Origin: Deltaproteobacteria bacterium
Lineage (GTDB): Bacteria > Bdellovibrionota > FAC87 > UBA2466
Length of the DNA stretch: 64,000 bases
NCBI GenBank assembly: GCA_016196825.1
Contig: JACPWY010000055.1
Location: 70-64,069, forward strand
Direction of reading: 5' to 3'
Shown here: piece after piece, positions 1-24,264 of the stretch
Layout of the letters: each line of letters opens with the position of its first letter
Position numbering within the stretch: the first letter of the stretch is position 1
Program-made: the position numbers and the translations under genes
The notes under the pieces: generated by a model
The model's input: the letters and a program-made list of their open reading frames with translations, nothing else
Database searches by the model: none
Told to the model about the DNA's origin: nothing

Positions 1-449
1 GAGAGCGTGACCTCCGAGTGGGTGCTGCAGATGGGGCGCGTGATTTCGCGTCTCTTCCCCGGAAAACGCTTCTTAAGCTCACATTCAAGGCCCCGTTTGG
101 TTTGCGTGGAGGCCAACTCTAGGAGTTCCTCTTCATTACAACTATTGATAACTTTAAGGAGCAGTGTGGCATGCGATACCGACAAGGAACCTTGATCAAT
201 GAGTTCAAGCATCTTGGGACATTCCCTGCTCTTTCTGGCAATGCCTACGAGTGAATAGGCCTGAAAATCACTCAGCCCTAGCGGGCCCACACAATAGGAC
301 CGCATCGAGGCAAAACCCAAGGCAACAAATCCTCGAGTCCTATCCATCTCATTCAACAGATCGATGAGGTGTCTCTCACAGCGTTTGAATTCTTTTGCGA
401 CGCCAAGGTTCTTCTCATGCAGAAAGAGAATCATAGGAGAAATCATCAT
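1..449 (-). CDS. HNH-endonuclease-family protein, N-terminal part only (3' end runs off the left edge)
   Basis: Not in the supplied track because it is open at the window edge. Reverse-strand translation from ATGATG at 449 reads MMISPMILFLHEKNLGVAKEFKRCERHLIDLLNEMDRTRGFVALGFASMRSYCVGPLGLSDFQAYSLVGIARKSRECPKMLELIDQGSLSVSHATLLL... This is colinear with the N-terminal helical region of the complete HNH protein at 62726-63598. AGGTG lies 4 nt upstream of the ATG. Confidence 0.5.
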   Translation of the reverse strand, partial: MMISPMILFLHEKNLGVAKEFKRCERHLIDLLNEMDRTRGFVALGFASMRSYCVGPLGLSDFQAYSLVGIARKSRECPKMLELIDQGSLSVSHATLLLKVINSCNEEELLELASTQTKRGLECELKKRFPGKRREITRPICSTHSEVTL

Positions 450-461
450 GAAGCACCTAAA

Positions 462-529
462 TATCGACGATAGATCTCACAAATATAGACGATATGTCAA
501 CGTGAAACAAGCTGATCTATCGTCGATAA
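462..529. repeat. 15-bp perfect inverted repeat (TATCGACGATAGATC / GATCTATCGTCGATA) with a degenerate third copy in the spacer
   Basis: Read directly: 462-476 and 515-529 are exact reverse complements. 485-499 (TATAGACGATATGTC) is a 12/15 direct copy of the left arm. The repeat lies about a dozen nt upstream of the left-edge HNH gene start. Confidence 0.7.
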
Positions 530-736
530 CGAGAGAATGACAGGAAAGAAATATCAGTTTCATTGCCCGGGCAATAACTTGCGTCTAGGCGACAGCGACC
601 GCCGACTGCGGGAGATGTTCTTTTCTTTAAGAGATTTACGCATGGAGCGCTTCGGTTTTTGGCGGCTCACTGAGCCTTATTTCGCTACTTCTGGACTCCT
701 GACTACACGAAACCGATCCGTAGCTGCGGCAAGGCG

Positions 737-916
737 ATGCAATGGTTTGCAGCCCCAGCGCTCCTGGCCGTGGGGGCCACAGGGTATGTGCTCAATACTC
801 CAACCCAGAATCGCGAACTCCGATACGCTAAGGCTGCTTCGGATGTGTCTCTGGCCGAGGCGGAATTGAACGAGTGTGTCCGGGAGCTCAAAGCCAAACT
901 CGAAGTGGCGCGCTAA
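737..916 (+). CDS. possible 59-aa membrane-anchored coiled-coil protein (below the track's size cut-off)
   Basis: ATG 737 to TAA 914-916 translates to MQWFAAPALLAVGATGYVLNTPTQNRELRYAKAASDVSLAEAELNECVRELKAKLEVAR: one hydrophobic helix followed by an amphipathic helix. Only a weak AAGG lies upstream. I recognise no homolog. Confidence 0.25.
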   Translation: MQWFAAPALLAVGATGYVLNTPTQNRELRYAKAASDVSLAEAELNECVRELKAKLEVAR

Positions 917-1225
917 CGACGGGCGAACAAGGCTAAACAAAAGACCTCGTGGCGCGAGAGATTCGCACAGGGCGTGCTCAGATGCGCTGGCCCCTCAGAT
1001 TGGAGATTCGGGCGAGGCCATCACAATCGCGGTCTCGGGTCAGAAATATCCCTCGCACATCAATACAAGCTTGCGACCAGACCCTTCCGCAGTCCAGATT
1101 TCCATTGCCGATCCACAAATCGAACCTGAAGAGACGCATCCCGCGCACCAAATCGATGGCCCCCGTCTTGCTCTATTTCCCCCACGTTCGGCTCAACATT
1201 GACAATATAGGTGTATTATACCAAT

Positions 1226-1507
1226 ATGCTCGTGCGACGTGAGAAGTTTGTCTTTCAAGGAAGTTACATCGTCGAAATCTCTGTACACGAAGTTGCGAGA
1301 GACGATCGATATCAAGACGGTCTCAAGTGGGGATTGGTTTGCGTTGATCAGAAAACAGGAAAACGGATTCTGATGGATAATCACCATCCCAAGGGACCGC
1401 ACGTGCACGTCAATGAATTTGAGGAGAATTACGAATTCCTGGGGCTAAACGAGCTTGTAGCCGATTTCAGGCGATTGATTGTCGAACATCTGGGAGTAGA
1501 AATATGA
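1226..1507 (+). CDS. DUF6516 / TumE-like toxin-family protein
   Basis: Track ORF 1211-1507 trimmed to ATG 1226 (AGGTG at 1208-1212). The core ..RILMDNHHPKGPHVHVNEFEENYEFLGLNELVADFRRLIVEH matches my memory of the DUF6516/TumE family (..yDN..g.gdH.H....e..y.f.....L..dF...v). Its stop overlaps the next start (ATGA at 1504). Confidence 0.6.
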   Translation: MLVRREKFVFQGSYIVEISVHEVARDDRYQDGLKWGLVCVDQKTGKRILMDNHHPKGPHVHVNEFEENYEFLGLNELVADFRRLIVEHLGVEI

Positions 1508-1872
1508 AACGTCTCATAGTTTCGTGTAAAACAGCTGACCAGGTCTTTGCCGACTTCAAATGCACTGCAAAGAAAGTGCAGCGGGGCACGTTTCGTGGGG
1601 AGCCCGAGTATGAGGTGAGTTTTGATTCGAAGGCCAACTTCAATCAATTCGTGCGAAATATTCCCGTTCTCTCCGCCATCCTGGTTTTCAAGCCACGATC
1701 GATCTATGAGCTCGCAAAGGTGACAGGCGCCGACGTTTCTAATCTCAACAAGGTGATTAAGTTTTTCGAGGATATTGGGGTGGTTCAAATCAAAACGACC
1801 AAGGTCTCCGGACGACAGGTAAGACGACCCAGCGTTGAGTTCGAGGAAGTGACCTTTCGTCTAGCCGCCTGA
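1504..1872 (+). CDS. winged-helix DNA-binding protein, TumA/HVO_A0114-like putative antitoxin
   Basis: 122-aa ORF translationally coupled to the upstream gene. The segment RSIYELAKVTGADVSNLNKVIKFFEDIGVVQI looks like a MarR-type HTH. Size and position are as in DUF6516-associated regulators. Confidence 0.55.
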   Translation: MKRLIVSCKTADQVFADFKCTAKKVQRGTFRGEPEYEVSFDSKANFNQFVRNIPVLSAILVFKPRSIYELAKVTGADVSNLNKVIKFFEDIGVVQIKTTKVSGRQVRRPSVEFEEVTFRLAA

Positions 1873-2076
1873 CCACTGCCCCTGACAAAATCCGTCACCG
1901 TATTCAGGCGAGTTACAGACGATATTTCACACTCTCCCGAAAACCCCTCACTCGTCCGCACGAAAATCCCGCACGGGCCGTGGCACCTCTCTTGCTCTTA
2001 TTAATATTCAGGTTTGGGCCTGTGGCTGCCAGTTTGGCGACCGCCCCCCAAGACCAGTTGTATACAGGTGTGGTGG

Positions 2077-3405
2077 ATGTTGCGGTTGTTGTGGAAGCTG
2101 GTGGTCCTGTTGACGATAATCCCGAGTATAGGGATCCAAGCGAATCCTCCCATCGCCAAGAAAACTTCTCTCCTCGGCCAGCTGACGCCGATGAAGCGTG
2201 CGGCTAAGCTCAACTATCCCGAATTCCCCAAGGAACTCAAGGCTCGCATCGAGGGCAAAACGCCCGCGAGCCACCCAGCTGTTGCCACCTCGACGACGAA
2301 GGATTGGGGCTTGAGCCACATCGGTTTTTTCCAGATCTTCAATACATTTCTATTGCCTGTGAAACCCGCGACAGTCCCCTGCTCTGCTGCCGTCGTAGTC
2401 GCTGTGGTTGACACAGGAATTGATTACACACACGCCGAGCTCAGGGACAGCGTTTGGATCAATAAGGGCGAAACCGGATCGTGGTCCCCTCCGCCCGGAA
2501 TGGAAAGATATATCAGCTGCCGCGACAAAAGCTGCAATGGCATCGATGACGATGGTGATGGTTTCGTGGATGATGTCGCTGGCTGGGATTTCGTGAATGA
2601 CGTGCCATTGGCCTACGATACTCACGGCCATGGCTCCCACATCGCGGGGATCATCGCGAGCACCGGCGCCGATGGCATCGGAAGTCCGGGCGTCTGCCCC
2701 GGCGTCTCGATCATGCCGCTCAAGTATTACGACGCCTCAGGCGTCGGCTATAACAATCTTCAAAACACAGTCCGCGCTTTCCACTACGCCATTCAGATGG
2801 GTGCGCAGATCATCAACTACAGTGGCGGCGGCACCGATCCTGCTCCCGCTGAGCGCCTCGCGCTGGAAGATGCCAAGAACCACGGCATCCTCGTCGTCGC
2901 AGCCGCCGGCAACGAAGGGCAAAACAATGACATCGCCCCCTATTTTCCCGCTAGCTACGGCCTTGAGAACATCATCAGCGTGGCCTCTATCAACCCCGAG
3001 AACCAGCTGCTCCCATCGAGCAACTGGGGCCCGGGCCGCGTCCACATCGCAGCCCCCGGCCAAGGAATCGTGAGCACGCTTCCCGGCGGCCAGCTTGGCG
3101 CCATGACCGGCACCTCCCAAGCCACCGCCTTTGTCACCGGCACCGCAGCCCTGCTTCTGAGCCAGCTCTCTAACCCCAAGGATTTTGACTACCACCAATT
3201 GAAAAGGTGGATCACCGATGGCGCCAAGCCCCTCCCCGGCAACGCCAAGAGGCAGATTCTGATGAGCGGCGTTCTCAACGTTGGCGGCGCGCTTGAGGCC
3301 GAGCGCAAAGATGTCCAGCGCGACAAGACACCGGTGAAACTCCCGGCCGTCGCTCTCAACCCCGGAAAGCCCACCTCGGGGACGTCACTCTCCAAAACCC
3401 AGTGA
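2077..3405 (+). CDS. secreted S8 (subtilisin-family) serine peptidase, paralog 1
   Basis: Track ORF 2014-3405 trimmed to ATG 2077, which exposes a signal peptide (MLRLLWKLVVLLTIIPSIGIQA). Triad motifs occur in order: VVDTGIDYTHAEL (Asp), HGHGSHIAGIIA (His), GTSQATAFVTG (Ser), plus AAAGNEG. An acidic Cys-containing insert CRDKSCNGIDDDGDGFVDDVAGWDF lies between Asp and His. Confidence 0.9.
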   Translation: MLRLLWKLVVLLTIIPSIGIQANPPIAKKTSLLGQLTPMKRAAKLNYPEFPKELKARIEGKTPASHPAVATSTTKDWGLSHIGFFQIFNTFLLPVKPATVPCSAAVVVAVVDTGIDYTHAELRDSVWINKGETGSWSPPPGMERYISCRDKSCNGIDDDGDGFVDDVAGWDFVNDVPLAYDTHGHGSHIAGIIASTGADGIGSPGVCPGVSIMPLKYYDASGVGYNNLQNTVRAFHYAIQMGAQIINYSGGGTDPAPAERLALEDAKNHGILVVAAAGNEGQNNDIAPYFPASYGLENIISVASINPENQLLPSSNWGPGRVHIAAPGQGIVSTLPGGQLGAMTGTSQATAFVTGTAALLLSQLSNPKDFDYHQLKRWITDGAKPLPGNAKRQILMSGVLNVGGALEAERKDVQRDKTPVKLPAVALNPGKPTSGTSLSKTQ

Positions 3406-3671
3406 CACTCCAAGGGCTTGAAACCGCGAATGAAACAGGATGGGTACACCGCACTTCTTCACAATCCGAGCTGTCCTGAAATTTCACACCTCAAGCCCTC
3501 GACTCCACACCGGTTTTTCAATTGTGTTTTTCGGACCGAATAGCTGGCTTACAGAAATCACCCTTCACAATCTGTCTAAAGTCTCGTCGACACAATTGTC
3601 TTTCCCATCCCATTCCATGGGTTACACGCCATCTCCGGCCCCTGGCGTGCGACTTGAAGGAGATCAGGGGT

Positions 3672-4886
3672 ATGAACCAAGCCCCAATCAAGCTGGTGAT
3701 TACCTTTTGGACGCTTTTCACATTTCCCTCAGTGGCCCAAACGGCGGCCGAAAAAATGAGTGCGCTCGGTTACCCAGCCATTCCTGCCTCCATTCGAGGT
3801 GAGAAGAGCACCCGCAATCCGAACTCCATCGGACTCACAGCTCCAGCCCACAGCGGCGACTGGGCCCTAGCTGACATCGGCTTCTTCCGCGTCTTTAATC
3901 CTCTCTTTCAGGCGATCGACCCCAAAACCACCCCCTGCTCAAAATCGACCATTGTGGCCGTCGTCGACACGGGCATCGACTACACCCACGCCGATCTCGT
4001 CGACGCTCTCTGGGTGAACCAAGGCGAAGTGGGACAGTGGGCACCCCAGGCCGGTTGGGTTCCACCCGCCGGAATCGATGCGCTCTGCCGCGACCGAAGC
4101 TGCAACGGCATCGATGACGACGCCAACGGCTTTGCCGACGATGTGATTGGTTGGGATTTCGTCCACAACATCGCGGCCCCCTACGATATCATCGGCCACG
4201 GCTCCCACATCGCGGGCATCATCGCGGCAACGGGCCGAAGCCAAATGAGCGGCGTGTGCAGCGGCGCTTCGATCATGACCCTTAAGTATTATGATCCGAC
4301 CAATCCCGGCGCGAATAACCTGAGCAATCTCGTGAGGTCGATTCACTATGCCGCCGCCAATGGCGCCGACATCATTAACTTCAGCGGTGGCGGCGTAGAG
4401 CCAGCCGAATCGGAACTTAAAGCTGTGAGAGCGGCGCGCGAAATGGGAGTGCTCATCGTGACCGCCGCGGGCAACCAGGGCCGCAGCAATGATCTTTTCG
4501 GCTCGTACCCGGCCAACTACCCTGTCGACAACATTCTCTCCGTCGCAAGCGTCGACTCCGAAAACAAGGTTCTTCCCTCGAGTAATTATGGCCAGCGCGT
4601 CCACCTCGCGGCCCCCGGTTCTGAGATTCTGAGCACCCTCCCCCAGGGTGGACTCGGCCGCCTCACCGGCACGAGCCAAGCAACGGCCTACGTCACCGGT
4701 GCCGCTGCATTCCTCATGAGTCAGCTCGGCAAGCATACGAGCTATGACTACATTAAGATCAAGTCCTGGCTCACCCGCGGCGCCAAGTCGCTCCCCAGCC
4801 CCAAGGTCATTGCGCACGGTCTTCTCTCGCTCCCCGACTCTCTGAAGCTCCTCAGAGCCGAAGAAGCCCACGTCTCCAAAAACTAA
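3672..4886 (+). CDS. secreted S8 (subtilisin-family) serine peptidase, paralog 2
   Basis: Track ORF 3522-4886 trimmed to ATG 3672 (AAGGAG at 3657-3662, 9-nt spacing). Signal peptide MNQAPIKLVITFWTLFTFPSVAQT. Same motif series as paralog 1: VVDTGIDYTHADL, CRDRSCNGIDDDANGFADDVIGWDF, HGHGSHIAGIIA, TAAGNQG, GTSQATAYVTG. Confidence 0.9.
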   Translation: MNQAPIKLVITFWTLFTFPSVAQTAAEKMSALGYPAIPASIRGEKSTRNPNSIGLTAPAHSGDWALADIGFFRVFNPLFQAIDPKTTPCSKSTIVAVVDTGIDYTHADLVDALWVNQGEVGQWAPQAGWVPPAGIDALCRDRSCNGIDDDANGFADDVIGWDFVHNIAAPYDIIGHGSHIAGIIAATGRSQMSGVCSGASIMTLKYYDPTNPGANNLSNLVRSIHYAAANGADIINFSGGGVEPAESELKAVRAAREMGVLIVTAAGNQGRSNDLFGSYPANYPVDNILSVASVDSENKVLPSSNYGQRVHLAAPGSEILSTLPQGGLGRLTGTSQATAYVTGAAAFLMSQLGKHTSYDYIKIKSWLTRGAKSLPSPKVIAHGLLSLPDSLKLLRAEEAHVSKN

Positions 4887-5008
4887 CCATAAATAATTCG
4901 CTAACGTGTTGAAATCCCGCGCGAAACATTCCCAGATTTCCCCTTGAATTCAATTTTTGACACATGGTATCAAATGCCCTTCGGTTCAATCGGTTACAGG
5001 GAGAAAAC

Positions 5009-8000
5009 ATGGTGAAGAGGCGCAGTGTTGGGGGCGTCCTGTCGTTGGCTTTTCTCGCAAAGCGGCTGCACCAAGCCCTTTGGATGAAGGCCCTCATCGC
5101 GGTCCTTTGCTTTCAATTCGCGTTGCCGGTGCATCTCATGGCGGCGCCCGAAGACGAAGCGCAGGAGGCCGGTGAAACATCAAGTCCCCACGAAGAGGCG
5201 ATCAAGGTCAGCTTAGACGATCTTCGCGCCCGTATCGAACGGGCGGGCAACACCTCGGCCCGTCTCGCGCTGACCGCCGTTCAGCGCAATGTTGGCCTCT
5301 TGCTCAATCAGGAGCTGATCGACACTCAAACCGGAAAAGTTTACGACCTGACCGTGGAAAACCTGGCACTCCCCCGAGCGAGCGTGCCAGCCGGTCTAGT
5401 CAACCGCGCCCTCACCGTCGAAAAGACCGATAACGGCGTCGTCCTCGGTCTCAAAGGCAATCGATACAAGCACCGAATCTCGCTCAACCCCGGCGTGGAG
5501 CTCGTGGATTTCGATTGGGACAGCGACGTTGTCGAGCTTCTCTTGAGCGACGGCTCACGTCACGTCATAGAGGTGTCGTCTCTAGGCCCCACATCCGAAA
5601 ACATGGCGCAGGGTCTCCTCTTTTCGGCGCCCATTCCGGTGTTTTATCTCGGCATAGCCCAATCGGTGAACGGGAAACCCGTGAACCGCATTCGCATTCT
5701 TCAAAGACGGGTCGATCCTGTCGATCGCTCGCGCGCGGCCCAGCTCGCCCGCCTCGATCGCAACCCCCGCACACGGGAGCAGGGCCTCCTCTCCGCCAAT
5801 CGCGATCTCGTGAACCGCGTGGCCGATAATCTCGAACTGCTTCGGCCCGTTCCCCTTGCCCCAGAACTGGAACAGATCCTGAAGACCCACTCCGACGATG
5901 GGCAGGCCTGGCTCTACGCCGGTGACACGGCTCTGATCCATGACGACGGAAACAGCGAAGAGATGGTCGGCTGCGACTCGCGTCTCACCGAAGTCGGCAT
6001 GATCGGGCTCCAGATGGGGCCACTTACGGGTCTGTGGCACATCGCCTCTCCGGAAAGCGCGAAGGCCTCGAAGGATCTCTTCGACCTGCGCAACAGCGCC
6101 AAGCTCGCAGTCTCCGAGATGGTCAGTGATCCAGAAGAGCTGGCGAGATTCTTCAGAGACGGAACTCAGAGTGCCCTCTCCCGCATTCCCGCGAGCGCAC
6201 TCAACGCCACGAATGATTACGCGATCCGAATCGCAGAGCGGGTGAAGAAGCTGAAAGAGCAGGGCACGCCTGACGCCCTCCGAGATGCTTTCACGGGAGA
6301 ACAGCAACTCGCCGACTACGAATCTTTCAAGAGGTATCACTCCGAGCTCACCGAGCGCACCCTTGCCCATGAGAAAAAGAGTCTCTGGAACCCTTCGCGC
6401 TATCCGTTCGCCCGCCGCATGGGCACACGAATGGCCGATTTCGGAAAGGGCATCGCCAGTTTTGATCTTCCGAGAAGAATGCGCCAGGTGACGACGGTCT
6501 TGAAAAAGCCGCTAGTGGCCGGCGCCATTGCTATCGCAAGCTCGGCGGCGGCGACCGATTACATGGCAAACCATGGACAGAACGTGGGGTTGGTCGTGGA
6601 TACGGTGACATCGGCCTGGAACCACGTCCAAGATTTCACAGTCCCCATCATGCGCGACATGAACTACGCCAAGGACGTCACCCTCTATTCATTTCCCAGC
6701 CGGACCGCCATGATGATGTCGGTTTTTCTGTTAGCGGCCGCGGCCTATCCGTTCACTCAGCACTCGATTAATAAGCTCATCACCCGATCGGGCCTGAAGT
6801 ATCTCTTCAGCGCGTCTATCATGCCCCCCCAGCGGTTTCTCGCGGGGCTCACCCTGCGCCCAGAGCTCGTCGATGCGATGAAGAAGGGTCATTTTCCGCG
6901 CGAGCTTCTCAATCCCATGGGCCGCCTCAGTAGCTCCTGGCCCGACCGATTGGCGCTGGCCTCGCGGAATATCAATGACCACAACCGGTATAAGAGCATC
7001 GCCTCCGCCATCGCGCTCACTGCCATCGCAGACCGCCAGGGAATCGACATGGCGGCGCTACTCTCCTCCCCCGAGTTGGCCACGCCATCGTCCAATCTTG
7101 CGCTAGGCCTCGGCGATCTCTTAGGCAATTCAAGCCAAGGCACGCTCTTCCGAGCTCTGAATGAAAGCCCCGAAGAGTTCTTCCATTCGCTGCTGAATGC
7201 ACGACAACTCGCGAGCAGCGTCCTCATCCCCTCCGGCGCCATAGACCGAGCGCCAGGAATGGCGATAATGCGTTCGATCGTGCTCCCGAACATTCTCTCC
7301 AGCGTCGGAAACTTTCAGGAGGCCCGTTATCAGGCTTTGCGCGACCCGCAACCGACTCAGGATTTTTCTGACTACGTCATGAGAGGTTATCTGGTCGACG
7401 GCCTCTTTTCGCTCATTCAATCCACGTATATCCGTGGCAGGTACGCCGATTTTGAAAATCCCGACGCCTTGGCTTATCAAGCCGATGGAGCCCTTTGGAC
7501 GAACAAAATGATCTGGATCAACGATTGGGAGCAGATCTTTCTCCACCTCGGAGCCTCGGCGGCGGTGGATTTCCTCTCTTCAGGCCTTGAGGCAAAGGCT
7601 GTGTTCAACTTCCTTCAACCGGCCTCGGGATACGACCTGGATCGCACCACGGGGACCCGCAGTGCCGCCCGTGACGGTTTGGAATATTTCAAGTTGCTCT
7701 TCGATCTTCGGGGTAACAACTACCTCGTGGGGTTTGGCGAGCGAAGCTGGAACCAGTGCGTGCGATTGCTGCAGGGATTTTTCCTCATTGGCATGGGACT
7801 TCGTCTTTTCGAAGGGATGCTGGGAGGCGAGCCGGTGTCGAGCCTCTTCTCCATGCAGTCATTCGAACACGCCACGGTGGGGCAGCTCTATTTCGTATTC
7901 GCTGCGCCTTTTGTCTATCGTTGGGTGTGGGCTGTGGTTATCACCTCGATGCGTGCCTTCGGCGCCCAGATTGGTAAAATGAGCGCCGGGTACCAGGACC

Positions 8001-8623
8001 ACTACACGCAACTCATGGCCTCCCTCAATAAGAAGGACATCGCCGGAGCGCGGAGGGAGGCCGATCACATGGTCTCGCTTTACGATCGGGAATTTCGATC
8101 CATCCCGCAAAATATTCGGGATTCTCTTAAGAGAACAGCGAATGACAATCCGCTCGAGTGGGCCAACAGAGTCCTTGAGGCCTGCCGCAATACACCGCCC
8201 GTGCCCGAGGGAAGCAATGAGAAGGTGAACAAAGCCATCATGTTCGTGGCCTCAGTTGCGACCACCTACCTCGCTGGGTTTCTCATGGTCGATAGCTTCG
8301 AAAACCGCCCCTTCCGTGGCTTCGACGTGCCCGAGGGGCAAATGGGCTTCGACACCTCTGACTGGTTCGCCTGGAACGGAATGTCGAGACGAGACTCGAT
8401 ACCGGCCCTAATGTTCAAGTCTCTTCTCAACATCATGGCCATCTGGGGCGCCGGCCATGCATTCAATGTCGCGCGCGACTGGTGGGCTGGGAAGGATACG
8501 AGCGAGGCGGTCAAAGGTCTACGATCGATGCCGCTCGTGAATTTCGGGAACCCTTCGCCGCCCCTCATGAAGCCAGTGAAAGACTCCAATTGTCCGGAGC
8601 AACTTCTGCGCAAAGCCTCTTAG
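5009..8623 (+). CDS. large (~1,200 aa) multi-pass membrane protein of unknown function
   Basis: Uninterrupted 3.6-kb frame. ATG 5009 is preceded by AGGGAGA (4998-5004); ATG 5084 is an alternative start that gives a classical signal peptide (MKALIAVLCFQFALPVHLMA/APE). The N-terminal ~450 aa look soluble. At least 6 hydrophobic helices follow (e.g. TAMMMSVFLLAAAAYPF, LLQGFFLIGMGLRLF, LYFVFAAPFVYRWVWAVVITSM, AIMFVASVATTYLAGFLMV, LLNIMAIWGAGHAF). I recognise no known motif. Confidence 0.75.
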   Translation: MVKRRSVGGVLSLAFLAKRLHQALWMKALIAVLCFQFALPVHLMAAPEDEAQEAGETSSPHEEAIKVSLDDLRARIERAGNTSARLALTAVQRNVGLLLNQELIDTQTGKVYDLTVENLALPRASVPAGLVNRALTVEKTDNGVVLGLKGNRYKHRISLNPGVELVDFDWDSDVVELLLSDGSRHVIEVSSLGPTSENMAQGLLFSAPIPVFYLGIAQSVNGKPVNRIRILQRRVDPVDRSRAAQLARLDRNPRTREQGLLSANRDLVNRVADNLELLRPVPLAPELEQILKTHSDDGQAWLYAGDTALIHDDGNSEEMVGCDSRLTEVGMIGLQMGPLTGLWHIASPESAKASKDLFDLRNSAKLAVSEMVSDPEELARFFRDGTQSALSRIPASALNATNDYAIRIAERVKKLKEQGTPDALRDAFTGEQQLADYESFKRYHSELTERTLAHEKKSLWNPSRYPFARRMGTRMADFGKGIASFDLPRRMRQVTTVLKKPLVAGAIAIASSAAATDYMANHGQNVGLVVDTVTSAWNHVQDFTVPIMRDMNYAKDVTLYSFPSRTAMMMSVFLLAAAAYPFTQHSINKLITRSGLKYLFSASIMPPQRFLAGLTLRPELVDAMKKGHFPRELLNPMGRLSSSWPDRLALASRNINDHNRYKSIASAIALTAIADRQGIDMAALLSSPELATPSSNLALGLGDLLGNSSQGTLFRALNESPEEFFHSLLNARQLASSVLIPSGAIDRAPGMAIMRSIVLPNILSSVGNFQEARYQALRDPQPTQDFSDYVMRGYLVDGLFSLIQSTYIRGRYADFENPDALAYQADGALWTNKMIWINDWEQIFLHLGASAAVDFLSSGLEAKAVFNFLQPASGYDLDRTTGTRSAARDGLEYFKLLFDLRGNNYLVGFGERSWNQCVRLLQGFFLIGMGLRLFEGMLGGEPVSSLFSMQSFEHATVGQLYFVFAAPFVYRWVWAVVITSMRAFGAQIGKMSAGYQDHYTQLMASLNKKDIAGARREADHMVSLYDREFRSIPQNIRDSLKRTANDNPLEWANRVLEACRNTPPVPEGSNEKVNKAIMFVASVATTYLAGFLMVDSFENRPFRGFDVPEGQMGFDTSDWFAWNGMSRRDSIPALMFKSLLNIMAIWGAGHAFNVARDWWAGKDTSEAVKGLRSMPLVNFGNPSPPLMKPVKDSNCPEQLLRKAS

Positions 8624-8633
8624 GGAGGTCAGG

Positions 8634-10850
8634 TCAGCCGTCTTTTTTCTGAACGCGTTCGACCGAGATCACACCTTCAACGCCTTCGAGGGCGCGGATG
8701 ATCTTTGAAAGATGCGGCAAATCCTGGATCGCCACCCCAAAGGTGCAGACCGCTTTCTTGTCTTTCGTCGTTCCCACGGTTGCGCGGCTGATGTTGGTGT
8801 CGAGCTCCTTGATCACGCGGCTCATGTCGGCGAGGAGTCCCGGCCGATCCTCGCACAACACTCGCACCTTGACGATCCGCTCGGCCCTCTTCGACACATC
8901 CCAGTCGATATCGACGAGACGGTGAGGATCGGTGTCAAAGACCTTCGGGCATTTTCGGGAGTGGACGCTGATGCCGCGGCCACGCGTGATGAAGCCGACC
9001 ACGCTGTCCCCCGGCACCGGGTTGCAGCAGCGGGCGAAGCGGACGAGGATGTCATCGACCCCCTTCACCTTCACAACCTGGCGCTCCTGATTCTTTCTTT
9101 TTGCCTCTTGAAAGATCTTCTGAAGAGGCGATTCGGGGCTAGCCGTCAGCGCCTCGCCCTCGGGCTGGATCTTGGTGAGGATCTTTCTCACGCTGATCTT
9201 GCCATATCCGACAGCGCTCATGAGGTCGTCCACCGATTTCAGAGAAAACTCTTCGGCGACCCGCAGGAGTGTGCCGTCCTTCTGCAGTGTCTTGAGCTTC
9301 AGATTCTCGCGCTTGAGCTCCCTATCAAGGACCATCTCGCCCATCGTTTTCGATTTCTCATGCTCGGCGCTTTTAATGAACTGACGAATCTTGTTTTTGG
9401 AGCGCGAGGTGCGGACGATCTTGAGCCAATCCTTGTTGGGCTTCTGATTGGGCGAGGTGATGATCTCAACGGTATCACCGCTTTTCAGCTTATGCTTGAG
9501 CGGCACAATGCGGCCGTTGACTTTGGCGCCGATGCAGCGGTGGCCCAGATCCGTGTGAACCGCGTAGGCGAAATCGAGCGGCGTGGACCCTTGGGGAAAC
9601 TCCATCACCTGCCCTTTCGGCGTGAAGACATAAACATCTTCCGCGAAGAGATCGAGCTTCACCGTCTCTAAGAACTCATTGGGGTCGGAGAGATCGCGGT
9701 TCCATTCGATGAGTCTCGTGAGCCATCCGAACTTCTCCTGGTCCTTATCGGTATCCTTCCCGAGGCTGACATTTTCTTTGTAGGCCCAGTGGGCAGCAAT
9801 TCCGCGTTCAGCGGTATCGTGCATTTCATGGGTGCGAATCTGGATCTCAATGCGTTCGCCCCCGGGGCCGACGACCGTCGTATGCAAGGACTGATAAAAA
9901 TTGGCCTTGGGAATGGCAATGTAATCCTTGAACCGCCCCGGCACCGGCGTCCACAAGGAGTGCAAGAGCCCCAGAACCGCGTAGCACTGCTCGACCGTAT
10001 CCACGAGCACGCGGAAACCGGTAATGTCATAAACCTGATCGTATGAAACGTTCCGTTTCTCCATCTTTTTGTGGATGGAATAGAAATGCTTCGGGCGGCC
10101 GGTGACGTTAGCCGAGCCGTAACCGTGCTGCGCGAGCGTGCTCTGGATGAGCGCCTGCACATCGACAGTGTATTGCTCGCGCTCCTTCATCTTCTTACTC
10201 ACCTGCGAAACGAGGCGGTAGTAGATCTCGGGCTTTGTGAAACGGAGCGAGAGATCCTCCAGCTCACGTTTCAAGGAAGACAATCCCAGGCGATTGGCGA
10301 GTGGACTGTAGATATCCAAAGTCTCCTGCGCGATCTTCACCTGCTTCTCGGGCTTCAAGTGCTGGAGCGTGCGCATGTTGTGGAGGCGATCGGCGATTTT
10401 TACGATGATCACGCGCAGGTCCTTCGCCATTGCGAGGATCATCTTGCGAAAATTCTCGGCCTGCTTCTCCTCGCTGGTCTGGAACGTGATCTGGGAGATT
10501 TTGGTGACGCCATCGACAAGCACCGCGATATCATGGCCGAAGTTGGCCTCAATCTCCGCCAGAGTCGCGCGCGTGTCTTCGACGGTGTCGTGCAAAAGAC
10601 CCGTCACAATCGTCGTCGTGTCGAGCTTGAGCTCGGCGAGGATCCGCGCCACTTCAAGCGGGTGCTGAATATAGGGCTCGCCGCTCGAACGCTTTTGATC
10701 CTGGTGGGCGCCGGCGGAGAAGTGGAACGCCTTCTCGATCAGGGCCGTGTCGGACTTTGGGCTGATCTGTTTCACCGTATTGATGAGTGACTTTAGTGCG
10801 GCAACTGGCTCGAAAGGCGGAGGAGTATTTTGCGTCGTTGTTACTGACAT
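8634..10850 (-). CDS. rel: bifunctional (p)ppGpp synthetase/hydrolase (RelA/SpoT family)
   Basis: HD hydrolase motif HPLEVARILAELKLD...LLHDTVEDT, a RelA/SpoT synthetase region (RPKHFYSIHKKM), a TGS region (VFTPKG...GSTPLDFAYAVHTDLG) and a C-terminal ACT-like region. Start trimmed to ATG 10850, just after the gmk stop at 10841-10843. Confidence 0.95.
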   Translation of the reverse strand: MSVTTTQNTPPPFEPVAALKSLINTVKQISPKSDTALIEKAFHFSAGAHQDQKRSSGEPYIQHPLEVARILAELKLDTTTIVTGLLHDTVEDTRATLAEIEANFGHDIAVLVDGVTKISQITFQTSEEKQAENFRKMILAMAKDLRVIIVKIADRLHNMRTLQHLKPEKQVKIAQETLDIYSPLANRLGLSSLKRELEDLSLRFTKPEIYYRLVSQVSKKMKEREQYTVDVQALIQSTLAQHGYGSANVTGRPKHFYSIHKKMEKRNVSYDQVYDITGFRVLVDTVEQCYAVLGLLHSLWTPVPGRFKDYIAIPKANFYQSLHTTVVGPGGERIEIQIRTHEMHDTAERGIAAHWAYKENVSLGKDTDKDQEKFGWLTRLIEWNRDLSDPNEFLETVKLDLFAEDVYVFTPKGQVMEFPQGSTPLDFAYAVHTDLGHRCIGAKVNGRIVPLKHKLKSGDTVEIITSPNQKPNKDWLKIVRTSRSKNKIRQFIKSAEHEKSKTMGEMVLDRELKRENLKLKTLQKDGTLLRVAEEFSLKSVDDLMSAVGYGKISVRKILTKIQPEGEALTASPESPLQKIFQEAKRKNQERQVVKVKGVDDILVRFARCCNPVPGDSVVGFITRGRGISVHSRKCPKVFDTDPHRLVDIDWDVSKRAERIVKVRVLCEDRPGLLADMSRVIKELDTNISRATVGTTKDKKAVCTFGVAIQDLPHLSKIIRALEGVEGVISVERVQKKDG

Positions 10851-11431
10851 TCTTTCCTGAAGATGCTTTGGAGTTCCTTGTAGGCCCGGTCCAGCTGGTC
10901 GTTCAAAATCTGGTAGTCGAAGATCCTGCTCCATTCGACTTCATTGTAGGCATTGCGCAAACGCGTTTCAATAGCCTGCGGGCTGTCGCCCTTGCGATCC
11001 ACCAGTCTTTTCTCGAGCTCCTTCATCGACGGTGGGTGGATGAAAATGAGCAAAACCCGGTCGCCATAGGCCTTTTGCAGGCTCTTAGCGCCCTGTACGT
11101 CGATATCAAAAAGGACATGCTTTCCATTTGTTAACGCCTTTTCGATCTGCTCGCGGGAGGACCCATAAAAATTACGATGGACCTCGGCCCATTCGGCAAA
11201 ATTGCCCGCCGTCTGCTGGGCCTTGAACTCGTCGGGAGTCACAAAAAAATAGTGAACTCCTTGAGTTTCGTTAGGTCTTTGGGGCCGAGTTGTCGTCGAA
11301 ATGGAGAGCTGGACCGTGGGGAACTCCTTGAGGAGCCTCTCACAGAGTGTGGTCTTCCCAGCGCCCGAGGGGGCTGAAAGAATGATGAGGCGAGGAAGAG
11401 GTGTCTTCGATGTTCTACGAGACAAACTCAC
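10841..11431 (-). CDS. gmk: guanylate kinase
   Basis: P-loop LIILSAPSGAGKTTL, then STTTRPQRPNE..GVHYFFV. Size (196 aa) is typical. Confidence 0.95.
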   Translation of the reverse strand: MSLSRRTSKTPLPRLIILSAPSGAGKTTLCERLLKEFPTVQLSISTTTRPQRPNETQGVHYFFVTPDEFKAQQTAGNFAEWAEVHRNFYGSSREQIEKALTNGKHVLFDIDVQGAKSLQKAYGDRVLLIFIHPPSMKELEKRLVDRKGDSPQAIETRLRNAYNEVEWSRIFDYQILNDQLDRAYKELQSIFRKECQ

Positions 11432-11741
11432 CCTCCTCCAGCTCCTGCCTTGAAAGCGCAGATTGGAGGGGCGCGACTTTGAAACGTTCCTGCAGCGTGG
11501 TCGACAGCACGCTTGTCACAACCACGTGGCCGGAATCGAGCACAATGAGCGACTTCTCTCGGCGCCCAGCAGACGCATCGATGAGCCGATTCTCTTGCTC
11601 GGCCCTATTGCGCATGCGGCGCACTGGCGACGAATTGATCTCCTGAATCGCCACGATGCGATCACAGGGCAGGTAGTTTTTGAATCCAACGTCCAAAGTG
11701 TTCCCCTGGTTCAAACGGAATGCCTTAAACTTATTCGACAT
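11415..11741 (-). CDS. remA: RemA/DUF370-family regulator
   Basis: LDVGFKNYLPCDRIVAIQEINSSPVRRMRNRAEQENRLIDASAGRREKSLIVLDSGHVVVTSV matches the RemA pattern (..iGfgN.v...riiai..p.SaP.kR.i..a...g.liDaT.GrrtravI..ds.hv.LSa.). It sits in the conserved yicC-remA-gmk context. Confidence 0.8.
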   Translation of the reverse strand: MSNKFKAFRLNQGNTLDVGFKNYLPCDRIVAIQEINSSPVRRMRNRAEQENRLIDASAGRREKSLIVLDSGHVVVTSVLSTTLQERFKVAPLQSALSRQELEEGEFVS

Positions 11742-12615
11742 TTTGCGCCTGCTCCCTTAGCTTTTCGATCGCATGCTTCGCTTCGATAACGCTTTGCGAA
11801 ATCCTCGTTGAAGCGACCTTGGCTCCGAGCGTGTTCACCTCACGATTGATCTCCTGCAACAGAAAATCGAGCTTCCGGCCGACGCTCCCCTGATCCTTGA
11901 GAGCAGCCCGGAAGGCCCCGAGGTGGTGCGCGAGACGATCGAGCTCCTCCGAGACATCCGCCTTGTCGGCCAACAGTGCCAGCTCGAGCTCAAGGCGCTG
12001 CGAGTCAATCCCTTCGAGCTTCCATTTTTTCAGTCGGGCCGTGAGCCGCTCATGGATGAGTTGGGGTTGATCAACGGAAGCCTTGAGGATGCGATCGGCG
12101 ATCTCTTGGAGATCATTGATTCCAGAAAGAAGAATCTCGGAAAGCCGTTGGCCCTCGCTTTCGCGCATCTTCGAGAGAGCCTGAAGACCCTTTTCGACGA
12201 TGCCTTTGATGTCAGTGAAGATCGCTTCGTCCTTCTCTTCTTCGGTGGCAACGACGACCCGGGCGGTGCTGATGACCGCTTCCGCTGTGAGGGCGATCGG
12301 GGTGCCGGCGGCTTTGGAAACCTTTTCTAAGGACTGCAGAAGGCTCCTGAGAGCCAGCTCATCCACGATAAATCGGGAGACGCCTTTGATAGCTCCCTGC
12401 TTCGGGGCAAGACGTGTGCGAATCGAGAGCTCGAAGGATCCGCGCTCAAAGCGGGAGCGGAGGAGTTCGTTCAGGGGAATTTCAAGTGAAGACAGGGCCG
12501 ACGGAAGCCGAAACCGGGCCTCAAGATACCGATGGTTCACACTTTTTGATTCAAACGTATAGTGGGTGTCGCCGACCGTTCCATCCGAACGGCCAAAGCC
12601 GGTCATTGATCTCAT
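11731..12615 (-). CDS. yicC: YicC-family stress-induced protein
   Basis: N-terminus MRSMTGFGRS and C-terminus EINREVNTLGAK..S...S..V.E.K..IEK.REQ.QNVE are typical of YicC. Confidence 0.85.
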   Translation of the reverse strand: MRSMTGFGRSDGTVGDTHYTFESKSVNHRYLEARFRLPSALSSLEIPLNELLRSRFERGSFELSIRTRLAPKQGAIKGVSRFIVDELALRSLLQSLEKVSKAAGTPIALTAEAVISTARVVVATEEEKDEAIFTDIKGIVEKGLQALSKMRESEGQRLSEILLSGINDLQEIADRILKASVDQPQLIHERLTARLKKWKLEGIDSQRLELELALLADKADVSEELDRLAHHLGAFRAALKDQGSVGRKLDFLLQEINREVNTLGAKVASTRISQSVIEAKHAIEKLREQAQNVE

Positions 12616-13556
12616 GGTGGGGTCTCCAGAGCGTATTTGAGGTTTTCCACCTCTAGGGCGACGCGATCGAGATCGCGCGAATCGACGTAGCGAATCTCCG
12701 GGTCGCTCCTCAGCCAGGTGATCTGACGCTTCGCCAGCCGGCGAGTCTTCTCGATGATCTCATTCCTGAGCTGCTTATCCGTGAGTTCTTTCGAGAGGAA
12801 GCGAGCCGCTTCGTTGTATCCGATGCAAGAGAGAGAGCGAGTCTTGGGATACTTTTGCAAAAGGGCGCGCGCCTCATCCACTAGGCCGGTCATGAGCATA
12901 GTTTCCGTTCGTCGAGTGATGTTGTTGGTGAGGACACGGCGAGAGACCGCCATGGCATACTTCATCCAAAGACGCGATGACTGCTCGGGAGAGACACGTT
13001 CGGGTTTGAGCTCGCTCGGTTTCTGTTTGTAGTGTTTCAGAATAGCGAGAGCGCGAACGAGGCGATAACGATCGTTGGGGTGGATCTTCTCTGCCGCGGC
13101 AGGGTCCTGTGACTTGAGATTGGCGTACATCTTCTCGCCATCGAGCGTTTCATCGATCGTGTATTCATTTTCGATCGCCTCGATCTCGACCGCCGAGACA
13201 AACACATTCTGGTACATGCCGTGCTGTAGGGCCCGGAGGTAAAAATAGGTTCCCCCCACCACGATGGGGAGCTTTCCACGGGATGCAATCTCCGTAATGC
13301 TGCTCTCGGCCTGTTCCACAAAATGGTAGGCCGAAAAATTTTCATCGGGGTTCAGGACATCGAGTAGGTGGTGGCGCACCCGTTCCCGCTCCTCGCGAGA
13401 GGGCTTACTCGTGCCGATGTCGAGCTCGCGATAGACCGTCGAGGAATCAAGGCAAACAATTTCGCCGCCCAGACGCGCGGCCACCTCAATGGCAAAGGCC
13501 GACTTGCCGGAGGCGGTGGGGCCCAGTATAGCGAGGGTGAGGTGGCGGCTCTTCAT
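12612..13556 (-). CDS. miaA: tRNA dimethylallyltransferase
   Basis: P-loop ILGPTASGKSAFAIEVA, DSSTVYRELDIGTSKP, VGGTYFYLRAL. 4-nt overlaps with both neighbours. Confidence 0.95.
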   Translation of the reverse strand: MKSRHLTLAILGPTASGKSAFAIEVAARLGGEIVCLDSSTVYRELDIGTSKPSREERERVRHHLLDVLNPDENFSAYHFVEQAESSITEIASRGKLPIVVGGTYFYLRALQHGMYQNVFVSAVEIEAIENEYTIDETLDGEKMYANLKSQDPAAAEKIHPNDRYRLVRALAILKHYKQKPSELKPERVSPEQSSRLWMKYAMAVSRRVLTNNITRRTETMLMTGLVDEARALLQKYPKTRSLSCIGYNEAARFLSKELTDKQLRNEIIEKTRRLAKRQITWLRSDPEIRYVDSRDLDRVALEVENLKYALETPP

Positions 13557-15349
13557 ATTCTTTGAAAATACCTCTTCATCTCCCCAAAGCTCAACCGGAA
13601 GAGTACGGGGCGGCCATGAGGGCAGGTCCAGCCCATTTCGAGGTCCTTCAGGTAATTCATCAGCGAACGGGCCTCGGTGTCGCTCAGACGCTGATTCGCG
13701 CGGACCACGCTGTGGCAGGCCACGGTCGCGAGATAGGGCCGGAGAATTTTTTCCTTGAGCCGTGAGGCATCCTCTTCACTGAGACAGAGGCGGAGTGTTT
13801 CAAGAAGTGTTCTCTCGGCCTCGGATTCGCTCAGGACCTGTGGAATTGATCGGATTGCCACATCACAGCCGCCAATCGATTCGACCTCCATGCCGAGCTC
13901 GGAGAGAAGGGGAAGGGCGACCTCGGCGATGGCCGTGAGATCGGGTGGAAGAGAGATGACCTTGGGCACCAATAGCGATTGTGTGGGTTGCCGCCCCACC
14001 GCGGCCGAGGCCATGAGCTCTTCAAAACGAAATTTTTCATGGAGAGCGTGTTGATCGACGAGGAGAAGGCCTTCATCGTCCTCGCATACCAGATAGGCCG
14101 CATCCGCCTGGCCGAGGTAGCGCACCGAAGAGGGCTCGATCACTGGAACGGGCTGGTACATTGCCGATCGCGGTCCAGAAACTCCGGGGACAACCAAATT
14201 TTCCGCCTCCGACACGTACTGGTGCACCGCCTCTAAAACTGGCGGCGCAAAGAGATCCGGCTCGGGGCTGGACATAGGAATCTCACTCAACAAAGGCGAA
14301 GACTCCTCTTTGTTCCCCCCTGCGGAACTGCGCCGGGCAAGCCAGGTTTTGGGGAGAGCCTCGGTGATTTTTTTGGGCGGTTGGGAGAGGTGCTTACGGA
14401 TAGAGGCCACGATCCAGCTGTAGAGGATCTCACCTTTTAAGATGCGGACCTCGGATTTTTGGGGGTGAACGTTTACATCGACCCAGTCGGCGCGGATGTC
14501 GATGAAGAGCGCGCCGCTTGGGTCGTGGTGGGGTCCGAGGGTGTCGATGTAGGCGCTGCGCACGGCGCTCATGAGATTGCGGTTTCTAACGCTGCGACCG
14601 TTCACATATACGAAGAGCTCACCCCGATCATTGATTGTGTGCGCTGGCGAGAGAAACCCTTCGAGCTCGATGCCCTCCGTGCTCTCTTTCAAACAGAGTG
14701 GTTCCCAATCAACTTTGAGGCATTCCCGCACCCGATCGGCCCGTGAATCGCTCACGTAGGATTTTGGAGTGCCTCCATTGTGCGACACAAAAAAGGAGAC
14801 GCTCGGGTTCCCGAGGGCGATCTCTTTCAAAATCTTTTGGCAGTGAGCAAGCTCCGTGGAGTGGCTGCGCAGAAACTTTTGCCGCGCCGGAAGTTTTTCA
14901 AAAAGACGGGTGACCGTAATGGTGGTCCCCTCCTTTTGACCGACCGGCTGAGCGGCCCCCTTTACCTCACCAAACTCCACAGCGATCTTATGGCCCAGGC
15001 TCTCGCCCCGGCGCCTACTCTGAATCGTGAGATGGCCTACCGCCGCGATGCTTGAAAGCGCCTCGCCGCGAAACCCGAAGGTCTCAATCGCCTCGAGGCA
15101 ATCGGCATCCACAATCTTGCTGGTCGCGTGGCGCTCGATGCAAAGAATGAGGTCCTCGCCTGTCATCCCCTCACCATCATCGATGATCTCGATGAGATCC
15201 GTACCGCCTTCACCCAGACGGACGTCCACCCGCCTGGCGCCGGCGTCGATGGCATTTTCCACGAGCTCCTTGAGTACACTCGCCGGCCTTTCGACAACTT
15301 CGCCCGCAGCGATAAGGTTAATAAGGTGGTCAGGAAGGCGCCGAATCAT
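13553..15349 (-). CDS. mutL: DNA mismatch repair protein MutL (endonuclease-type)
   Basis: GHKL ATPase N-terminus MIRRLPDHLINLIAAGEVVERPASVLKELVENAIDAG. The C-terminal domain carries the endonuclease motif DQHALHEKFRFEEL (DQHAxxExxxxE). Confidence 0.95.
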   Translation of the reverse strand: MIRRLPDHLINLIAAGEVVERPASVLKELVENAIDAGARRVDVRLGEGGTDLIEIIDDGEGMTGEDLILCIERHATSKIVDADCLEAIETFGFRGEALSSIAAVGHLTIQSRRRGESLGHKIAVEFGEVKGAAQPVGQKEGTTITVTRLFEKLPARQKFLRSHSTELAHCQKILKEIALGNPSVSFFVSHNGGTPKSYVSDSRADRVRECLKVDWEPLCLKESTEGIELEGFLSPAHTINDRGELFVYVNGRSVRNRNLMSAVRSAYIDTLGPHHDPSGALFIDIRADWVDVNVHPQKSEVRILKGEILYSWIVASIRKHLSQPPKKITEALPKTWLARRSSAGGNKEESSPLLSEIPMSSPEPDLFAPPVLEAVHQYVSEAENLVVPGVSGPRSAMYQPVPVIEPSSVRYLGQADAAYLVCEDDEGLLLVDQHALHEKFRFEELMASAAVGRQPTQSLLVPKVISLPPDLTAIAEVALPLLSELGMEVESIGGCDVAIRSIPQVLSESEAERTLLETLRLCLSEEDASRLKEKILRPYLATVACHSVVRANQRLSDTEARSLMNYLKDLEMGWTCPHGRPVLFRLSFGEMKRYFQRI

Positions 15350-24115: not shown

Positions 24116-24198
24116 GGAGGGATAGGCAAATTGGTATGCCACCGCACTCGAAATGCGGCGGGAGCAATCCCTTGAGAGTTCAAGTCTCTCTCCCTCCG
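24116..24198 (+). tRNA. tRNA-Ser (anticodon CGA)
   Basis: Folded by hand. Acceptor GGAGGGA/TCCCTCC (7 bp). U8. D-arm GGCA-AATTGGTA-TGCC. Anticodon arm CCGCA-CT CGA AA-TGCGG. Long variable arm (GGGA-GCAA-TCCC). T-arm GAGAG-TTCAAGT-CTCTC. Discriminator G. CCA is not encoded. Confidence 0.9.
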
Positions 24199-24264
24199 CG
24201 CTCCCACATAATCCTTCGCTCGCTAGTTGTTGACCGGATGCAGCGGGGATGGCAGAACGGCGGA

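Follow-up and report, generated by a model that had tools for sequence, protein, structure and literature searches.

Mycosins, the S8 proteases of type VII secretion systems (T7SS), are encoded beside large membrane proteins, an arrangement to which the locus discussed here bears a superficial parallel, and Bdellovibrionota genomes hold many unexplained envelope proteins. The locus lies in a 64,000-nt stretch (hereafter, the window) of a metagenome-assembled genome (MAG) recorded as "Deltaproteobacteria bacterium" and consists of three genes, all on the forward strand: two tandem genes for secreted subtilases, S8-1 (2077-3405, 442 aa) and S8-2 (3672-4886, 404 aa), and a gene for an exported protein of 1,204 aa (5009-8623, hereafter the large protein), listed in the public record as a hypothetical protein and belonging to a family without prior description. 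An earlier reading of the window, made from the sequence alone, had suggested that the protease pair and a membrane partner, substrate or immunity protein form a functional unit. Our analysis points elsewhere: with a probability of about 0.6, independently promoted genes have become neighbours by accident in this lineage, and the large protein is a resident inner-membrane protein resembling a sensor or a scaffold. The locus would thus be two separate things side by side in one lineage, rather than one machine.

The subtilases themselves are readily placed. Both match the S8 family PF00082 far above its gathering cut-off of 21.8 bits (S8-1, 168.5 bits, E 3e-49; S8-2, 153.8 bits, E 8e-45), with the catalytic Asp, His and Ser in the order that this family demands, and they share 50% identity across 382 aa (E 3e-135), S8-2 being the more divergent tandem duplicate. 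The catalytic residues D112, H185 and S347, and the oxyanion Asn N279 (numbered as in S8-1), do not vary between the two paralogues or in their orthologues from the closest relative of the window genome, an uncultured Pseudobdellovibrionaceae MAG (L001). The pair of same-strand paralogous secreted S8 genes described in the sequence-only reading is thus confirmed, with the small correction that S8-2 begins at 3672, one base from the 3671 then given; a Shine-Dalgarno sequence, AAGGAG, precedes its ATG. Each protein starts with a hydrophobic signal-like segment, about 50 aa from the mature-domain motif DWGL..IGFF, in line with the earlier remark that a long propeptide is lacking: no Pfam match to an Inhibitor_I9 propeptide was found in either protein at E<=0.1, which places both outside the I9-propeptide subtilases, and no Pfam domain beyond S8 was found at their C-termini.

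Among solved structures, the best relative of S8-1 is deseasin MCP-01, a collagenolytic S8 protease of Pseudoalteromonas (PDB 3vv3, E 1.5e-41), with which the window proteins share the catalytic domain and, between its Asp and His, the D-rich loop, which in deseasin reads GIDNDGNGYIDDVHG. By contrast with deseasin, they carry 18 additional residues before this loop, including the C-R-D-K-S-C pair, and their serine motif is GTSQATA rather than the usual GTSMA type. The complete insert, C-R-D-(K/R)-S-C-N-G-I-D-D-D-x-(D/N)-G-F-x-D-D-V-x-G-W-D-F, is indeed present in both proteins between the catalytic Asp and His, as previously noticed; its description as unusual did not hold, because it typifies a very large clade of S8 proteases. 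At E<=1e-30, S8-1 has more than 3,653 homologues, and among the best 120 (51-71% identity, 370-460 aa in length) the loop G-x-D-D-D-x-N-G-x-x-D-D is present in 107, a C-x4-5-C pair before it in 110, and the serine motif GTSQATA in 117. By these motifs, S8-1 and S8-2 are ordinary members of that clade. They are predicted to be Sec-exported extracytoplasmic hydrolases, and such enzymes would be expected in a Bdellovibrio-like bacterium. The literature on Bdellovibrio subtilases yielded nothing specific to this S8 clade.

The comparison with mycosins does not extend far. The T7SS mycosin model TIGR03921 is the top NCBIfam model for both proteins (E 2e-45 for S8-1, E 3e-39 for S8-2), but the scores, 155.3 and 135 bits, fall far short of the curated cut-off of 278.75. 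Unlike mycosins, neither S8-1 nor S8-2 has a C-terminal hydrophobic anchor segment by hydropathy, and no ESX genes were found near the pair, whose neighbours are a TumE-type toxin-antitoxin pair and a relA block. Because of these scores, the lack of an anchor helix and the lack of an ESX neighbourhood, we do not regard S8-1 and S8-2 as mycosins; the host also differs, the window organism being a Gram-negative relative of Bdellovibrionota. A further candidate, the anti-phage peptidase IetS/IteS, was rejected as well, at 13.5 bits against a cut-off of 900 and with no partner gene in the neighbourhood; the PADLOC matches to IetS (E 5e-4 and 5e-3) cover short stretches, and PADLOC otherwise gives generic "subtilase" matches.

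The position of these genes in related genomes suggests how the pair arose. S8-1 shares 72% identity with the first S8 gene of L001 and S8-2 groups with the second, and the duplication is therefore older than the split between the window genome and L001. In two other related genomes (L011 and L012), only one S8 gene is found at this position; it has the same insert and shares 57-60% identity with S8-1, and the order there is SLT gene, S8, convergent relA-gmk-remA-yicC-miaA-mutL block, with no large gene. This block, headed in the window by relA/spoT (8634-10934, reverse strand, from its open reading frame translation), which is convergent with the large gene, keeps its order and orientation in the three genomes (window 8634-15349, reverse strand; L011 12688-19391; L012 11439-18207). 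Since the block lies downstream of S8 in all three, S8-1 is taken as the positional orthologue and S8-2 as a lineage-specific copy, the large gene now sitting between the S8 genes and relA in the window. The S8 gene would thus have undergone tandem duplication in the common ancestor of the window genome and L001, S8-1 staying at the ancestral position beside the convergent relA block and the S8-2 copy then gaining a regulatory spacer of its own. The S8-relA slot of L011, where the window has the large gene, holds an unannotated, very hydrophobic protein of 436 aa (L011 11298-12608, reverse strand).

Adjacency of the three genes was found in only one genome besides that of the window. The large-protein family was examined in 11 genomic contexts, some on short contigs, which comprise the window, L001 and nine others (L002, L003, L005, L006, L007, the P0010 contig, L008, L009/L010 and L013). 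The order S8-S8-large occurs in the window and in L001, that is in 2 of the 11, and does not form a recurring cluster. The nine other contexts have no S8 gene near the large-protein homologue within the available DNA, as confirmed by tblastn. The synteny survey proposed in the sequence-only reading thus returned one recurrence of the trio, in L001, and nine absences. On one contig of 772,519 bp, an S8 orthologue (at about 758 kb) and a large-family member (at about 251 kb) are both present, about 500 kb apart. Between the window and L001, the trio is the sole block in common and the flanks differ on both sides. No recurrent neighbour of the large gene emerged across the contexts: the genes of 444 aa and 440 aa found downstream of two distant family members are mutually unrelated. 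In L003, the large-family member P0004 is preceded, at a distance of 2.5 kb, by an open reading frame of 1,203 aa without Pfam match (252-3863, forward strand); considered as a possible paralogue of the large protein, it proved unrelated by BLASTP. Judged by gene order, members of the large family occur independently of S8 genes, being otherwise encoded alone and without a recurrent neighbour.

Each of the three genes, moreover, is preceded by a conserved element of its own. Upstream of S8-1, an exact sigma-54 (RpoN) promoter consensus, TGGCAC-N5-TTGC, lies at 1981-1995 on the forward strand, 82 nt before the ATG; it is the only exact site in the window, where 0.07 would be expected. The consensus TGGCAC-N5-TTGC(T) also precedes the S8 orthologues of L001 (6794-6808), L011 (9842-9856) and L012 (9912-9926). 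Compared with described sigma-54 promoters (-24 GG/-12 GC; TGGCAC-N5-TTGCW), the site is exact in its -24/-12 spacing, followed on the same strand by a gene at a suitable distance, and kept in four genomes. On this comparison of sequences, transcription of S8-1 most likely proceeds from the conserved sigma-54 site. A candidate binding site for a bacterial enhancer-binding protein is the 14-mer CGTCACCGTATTCA (1893-1906, forward strand), about 75 nt upstream of the promoter and exactly conserved ahead of the first S8 gene in L001.

The two internal spacers are long (266 and 122 nt in the window, 384 and 159 nt in L001), and no sigma-54-like site at <=2 mismatches was found in either. The spacer between S8-1 and S8-2 holds an array of four CACAAT motifs at 3460-3596 (3460 forward, 3521 reverse, 3566 forward and 3591 forward), the densest cluster in the window, with 4 copies in 137 nt compared with about 0.13 expected per 270 nt. 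The corresponding spacer of L001 has three CACAAT copies (8403-8514) with identical 61- and 45-nt spacing, and both spacers share the 13-mer CTTCACAATCTGT (window 3563-3575). The array may be a regulator-binding site and is considered here as a candidate. The second spacer, located at 4887-5008 as the sequence-only reading gave it, has the Shine-Dalgarno sequence GGGAGA ahead of the large-gene ATG at 5009. It carries a candidate sigma-70 promoter of the extended -10 type at 4944-4973 on the forward strand, composed of TTGAAT (4944-4949), a distance of 18 nt, and TG-n-TATCAA (4965-4973). The block TTGACACATGGTATCAA (4957-4973), which contains the extended -10-like element, is kept in L001 at 16 of 17 positions, an exact 11-mer included; TTGATT stands in L001 at an equal distance before this element, and TTGAC(A/G)CATGGTATCAA is common to the upstream regions of the large gene in both genomes. 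A standard consensus scan gave no forward-strand promoter in either spacer, the 4944-4973 site being absent from its list, and relaxed sigma-28 and sigma-70 regular expressions had no match in the three upstream regions. Spacer RNA folding was not better than that of shuffled sequences (z 0.29 and 1.14), and no Rfam family was found in the locus region. Taken together, the conserved upstream elements look like separate promoter or regulatory sites, which argues for separate control of the three genes. The sequence-only reading had named, as evidence that would speak against its unit, a lack of synteny elsewhere and a separation by independent promoters and terminators; the former and candidate independent promoters were largely found, and the terminators were not, none being predicted between the three genes.

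The large protein had been regarded as an orphan, which proved incorrect. A profile built from 4 close homologues and searched against 1.84 billion cluster representatives (50% clustering) retrieved 106 proteins at E<=1e-3, of which 50 pass E<=1e-10 and 19 pass E<=1e-30; almost all of the 106 are 1,050-1,400 aa long, and those that bear a name are recorded as "hypothetical protein". A word-indexed homologue search with a 32-sequence profile gave the same 4 proteins and no others, a scan of genome contigs returned as its sole match the already known relative, and no paralogue of the large gene was found elsewhere in the window. The earlier remark that the protein has no familiar domain held in profile searches, in searches of solved-structure sequences and in fold searches. 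Indeed, no Pfam or NCBIfam family scored above its curated cut-off, no match recurred among 32 diverse family members, and the family profiles matched no sequence of a solved structure. Two marginal matches, to HMW1C_N (the sole Pfam match of the window protein, E 0.015, 15.6 bits against a cut-off of 27, in 1 of 4 close members) and to ATP synthase b along a long helix (E 0.016), were set aside as chance or compositional. No internal repeats were detected by hhalign of sub-alignments.

The layout of the family is constant. A cleavable signal peptide (about aa 1-46 in the window protein), marked across the family by a Q-(L/F)-x-x-x-P core and by cleavage sites of the AxA type, is followed by a variable beta/alpha N-terminal region up to about residue 500, and then by a conserved all-helical body with hydrophobic helices at 562-584, 920-938, 957-979 and 1074-1096, and a tail with Cys1195. 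This Cys is near-invariant, lies 5-45 residues from the C-terminus across the family, often as C-x-x-[LIVA]-[FL], and differs from known C-terminal sorting signals because no transmembrane segment follows it. Polar residues are also conserved inside the hydrophobic helices, among them the near-invariant R932 and K1137. Since the alignments of distant members fall chiefly within about 570-1040 of the profile, the conserved core is placed in the C-terminal two thirds, with a variable N-terminal region before it. From a structural point of view, an AlphaFold model of residues 62-1147 made with 68 sequences reached a predicted local distance difference test (pLDDT) score of 87.4 and a predicted template modelling (pTM) score of 0.85, compared with a pLDDT of 37.6 when only 4 close homologues were used. 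It opens with a beta-rich N-terminal part, continues with mixed alpha/beta structure and is all-helical from about residue 325 onwards. Foldseek against the PDB gave a best E of 0.23, which is not a match to a solved fold, and viral predicted structures (BFVD) gave a best E of 0.013 with TM <0.1; the structure searches returned only short beta-blade-like and generic helical-bundle matches. The fold, confidently predicted, resembles no solved structure searched.

Membrane association was evaluated with summed Hessa biological hydrophobicity values, lower being more membrane-like, calibrated on three proteins of the window: all helices of a permease with 12 transmembrane (TM) helices scored <6, and relA and mutL had nothing <8. 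The sequence-only reading had counted at least six hydrophobic helices, and six Kyte-Doolittle peaks are indeed present, at about 502-520, 561-583, 916-938, 957-979, 1074-1096 and 1130-1150, with calibrated scores in the window protein of 5.8, 5.4, 5.5, 3.4, 0.3 and 6.0 for the six. Across 87 full-length members, however, only two of them are consistently predicted to be transmembrane-grade, namely 562-584 (family median 3.4, 97% below 6) and 1074-1096 (median 2.8, 93% below 6). The family medians of the other four range from 5.1 to 7.6; the fractions below 6 are 67% for 957-979, 51% for 920-938 and 46% for 502-520, so that 920-979 ranks as intermediate, and 502-520 and 1130-1150 as weak. As read from the sequence, the flanks following 584, preceding 920 and following 979 are basic, and those at 939-956 and beyond 1096 are acidic. 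The large protein would accordingly be a Sec-exported inner-membrane protein that loses its signal peptide by cleavage and exposes a variable N-terminal domain, about 500 aa in length, to the periplasm; from there helix 562-584 would cross inward, the conserved all-helical module (about 585-919 and 980-1073) would be cytoplasmic, interrupted by a membrane hairpin at 920-979, and helix 1074-1096 would cross outward, leaving a tail of about 110 aa with the near-invariant Cys in the periplasm. Such an arrangement, variable outside and conserved inside, fits a transmembrane sensor or a coupling scaffold better than it fits a protease substrate. With generic sensors and scaffolds the large protein shares a signal peptide, a variable N-terminal ectodomain, few TM helices and a conserved helical body, a likeness of layout only, since no sensor, transmitter or enzymatic domain was detectable by sequence or by fold.

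Other explanations of the locus deserve consideration. The large protein might be processed or activated by the subtilases or serve as their anchor, or it might be their substrate or immunity factor, with read-through accounting for co-expression of the three. In favor of such a unit, the genes lie on the same strand with no predicted terminator between them, S8-S8-large is the only part kept between the window and L001, and the genome with unlinked copies still encodes both families. We nevertheless consider it unlikely, for nine other large-family contexts have no S8 gene in the available DNA, the S8 clade far outnumbers the large family (>3,653 proteins versus 106 clusters), S8 orthologues stand at the same chromosomal position without a large gene, and each gene has a separate conserved upstream element. 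The trio does not give the impression of an obligate unit, and the proposal of the sequence-only reading is weakly supported at best. A more far-reaching interpretation, which we hold to be doubtful, sees in the large family an envelope-spanning protein of new fold, whose variable periplasmic domain would be coupled through a few membrane helices with near-invariant polar residues (R932, K1137) to a conserved cytoplasmic helical module and serve envelope signalling or predator-prey contact, the adjacent sigma-54 subtilases having been recruited to process the large protein or to act with it; on this tentative view, the family would so far occur only in contigs resembling one placed Bdellovibrionota MAG. 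Far less probable still is that the S8 pair, with or without the large gene, constitutes an anti-phage or type VII-like secretion protease module of the mycosin or IetS/IteS kind. The mycosin model does top the NCBIfam list for both proteins, and weak PADLOC "subtilase" and IetS matches exist; yet every score is far under the curated cut-offs, the anchor helix is lacking, no ESX or IetA-type partner gene is near, and the large protein has no PADLOC match.

As for the large protein itself, it could, instead of residing in the inner membrane, be helical and either secreted or periplasmic, with moderately hydrophobic hairpins that are buried in the fold and might insert on demand into another membrane, for instance that of a prey, like helical pore-forming toxins. 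Its signal peptide is cleavable, its hydrophobic helices are paired and mostly borderline (in 40 of 86 full-length members, not one segment falls under a strict threshold), AlphaFold gives a single compact confident fold, and the closest relative belongs to Pseudobdellovibrionaceae, the NCBI family of Bdellovibrio, placed in Bdellovibrionota by the NCBI taxonomy. By contrast, the scores <6 of helices 562-584 and 1074-1096 in 97% and 93% of members lie in the range of real 12-TM permease helices, the flank charges are those that the positive-inside rule predicts for a protein residing in the membrane, and the structure searches revealed no likeness to any pore-forming toxin fold, so that this alternative appears improbable. 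The preferred reading, a chance juxtaposition beside a resident inner-membrane protein, has to accommodate several observations that weigh against it. The conservation of the trio in L001 despite differing flanks could reflect selection for linkage, and the lack of a predicted terminator makes read-through co-transcription possible. Only 11 contexts were available, several on short contigs, and two scans of JGI metagenome contigs returned nothing, so that the sampling of relatives is thin. Promoter and regulatory-site assignments were made from consensus match and conservation. The topology and the role proposed for the large protein come from positive-inside reasoning by hand, along a path set from sequence, and the strongly basic segment RRMRQ..KK, found ahead of the weak helix 502-520 on the side assigned to the periplasm, does not fit this path.

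What the locus contributes differs between its parts. The subtilases alone change nothing, as further members of a very large clade; what is new about them is the conserved sigma-54 promoter, which offers a handle on the control of secreted hydrolases in a Bdellovibrio-like bacterium. The large family, by contrast, comprises at least 106 sequence clusters of constant size and layout with no relative in Pfam, NCBIfam or solved structures. To call it categorically new is to say that it has no detectable relation to anything described, which is ignorance of function and not evidence of a new mechanism; its variable outer domain and conserved inner module make a part in lineage-specific envelope biology or prey interaction a reasonable proposal.

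Other features of the window were recorded as well. Directly upstream of S8-1 lie a TumE-family toxin gene (1211-1507, forward strand; PF20126, E 3e-6) and an HVO_A0114-family gene (1504-1872, forward strand; PF25212, E 9e-8) which overlap by 4 nt; this pair looks like a toxin-antitoxin-like insertion, and L001 has an amino-acid kinase gene instead. A sigma-54-like site with one mismatch, TGGCCCCCGTCTTGCT (1157-1172, forward strand), is located about 40 nt upstream of the TumE-like open reading frame. The only RNA gene found in the window by Rfam and ARAGORN is a tRNA-Ser (CGA) at 24116-24199 on the forward strand. Further downstream, an open reading frame of 3,847 aa (27931-39474, forward strand) carries at least 15 Ig-like domains of the HYDIN/VesB/ASH/Cep192 type (PF22544, E 9e-146), and its product looks like a giant surface or adhesin-like protein.

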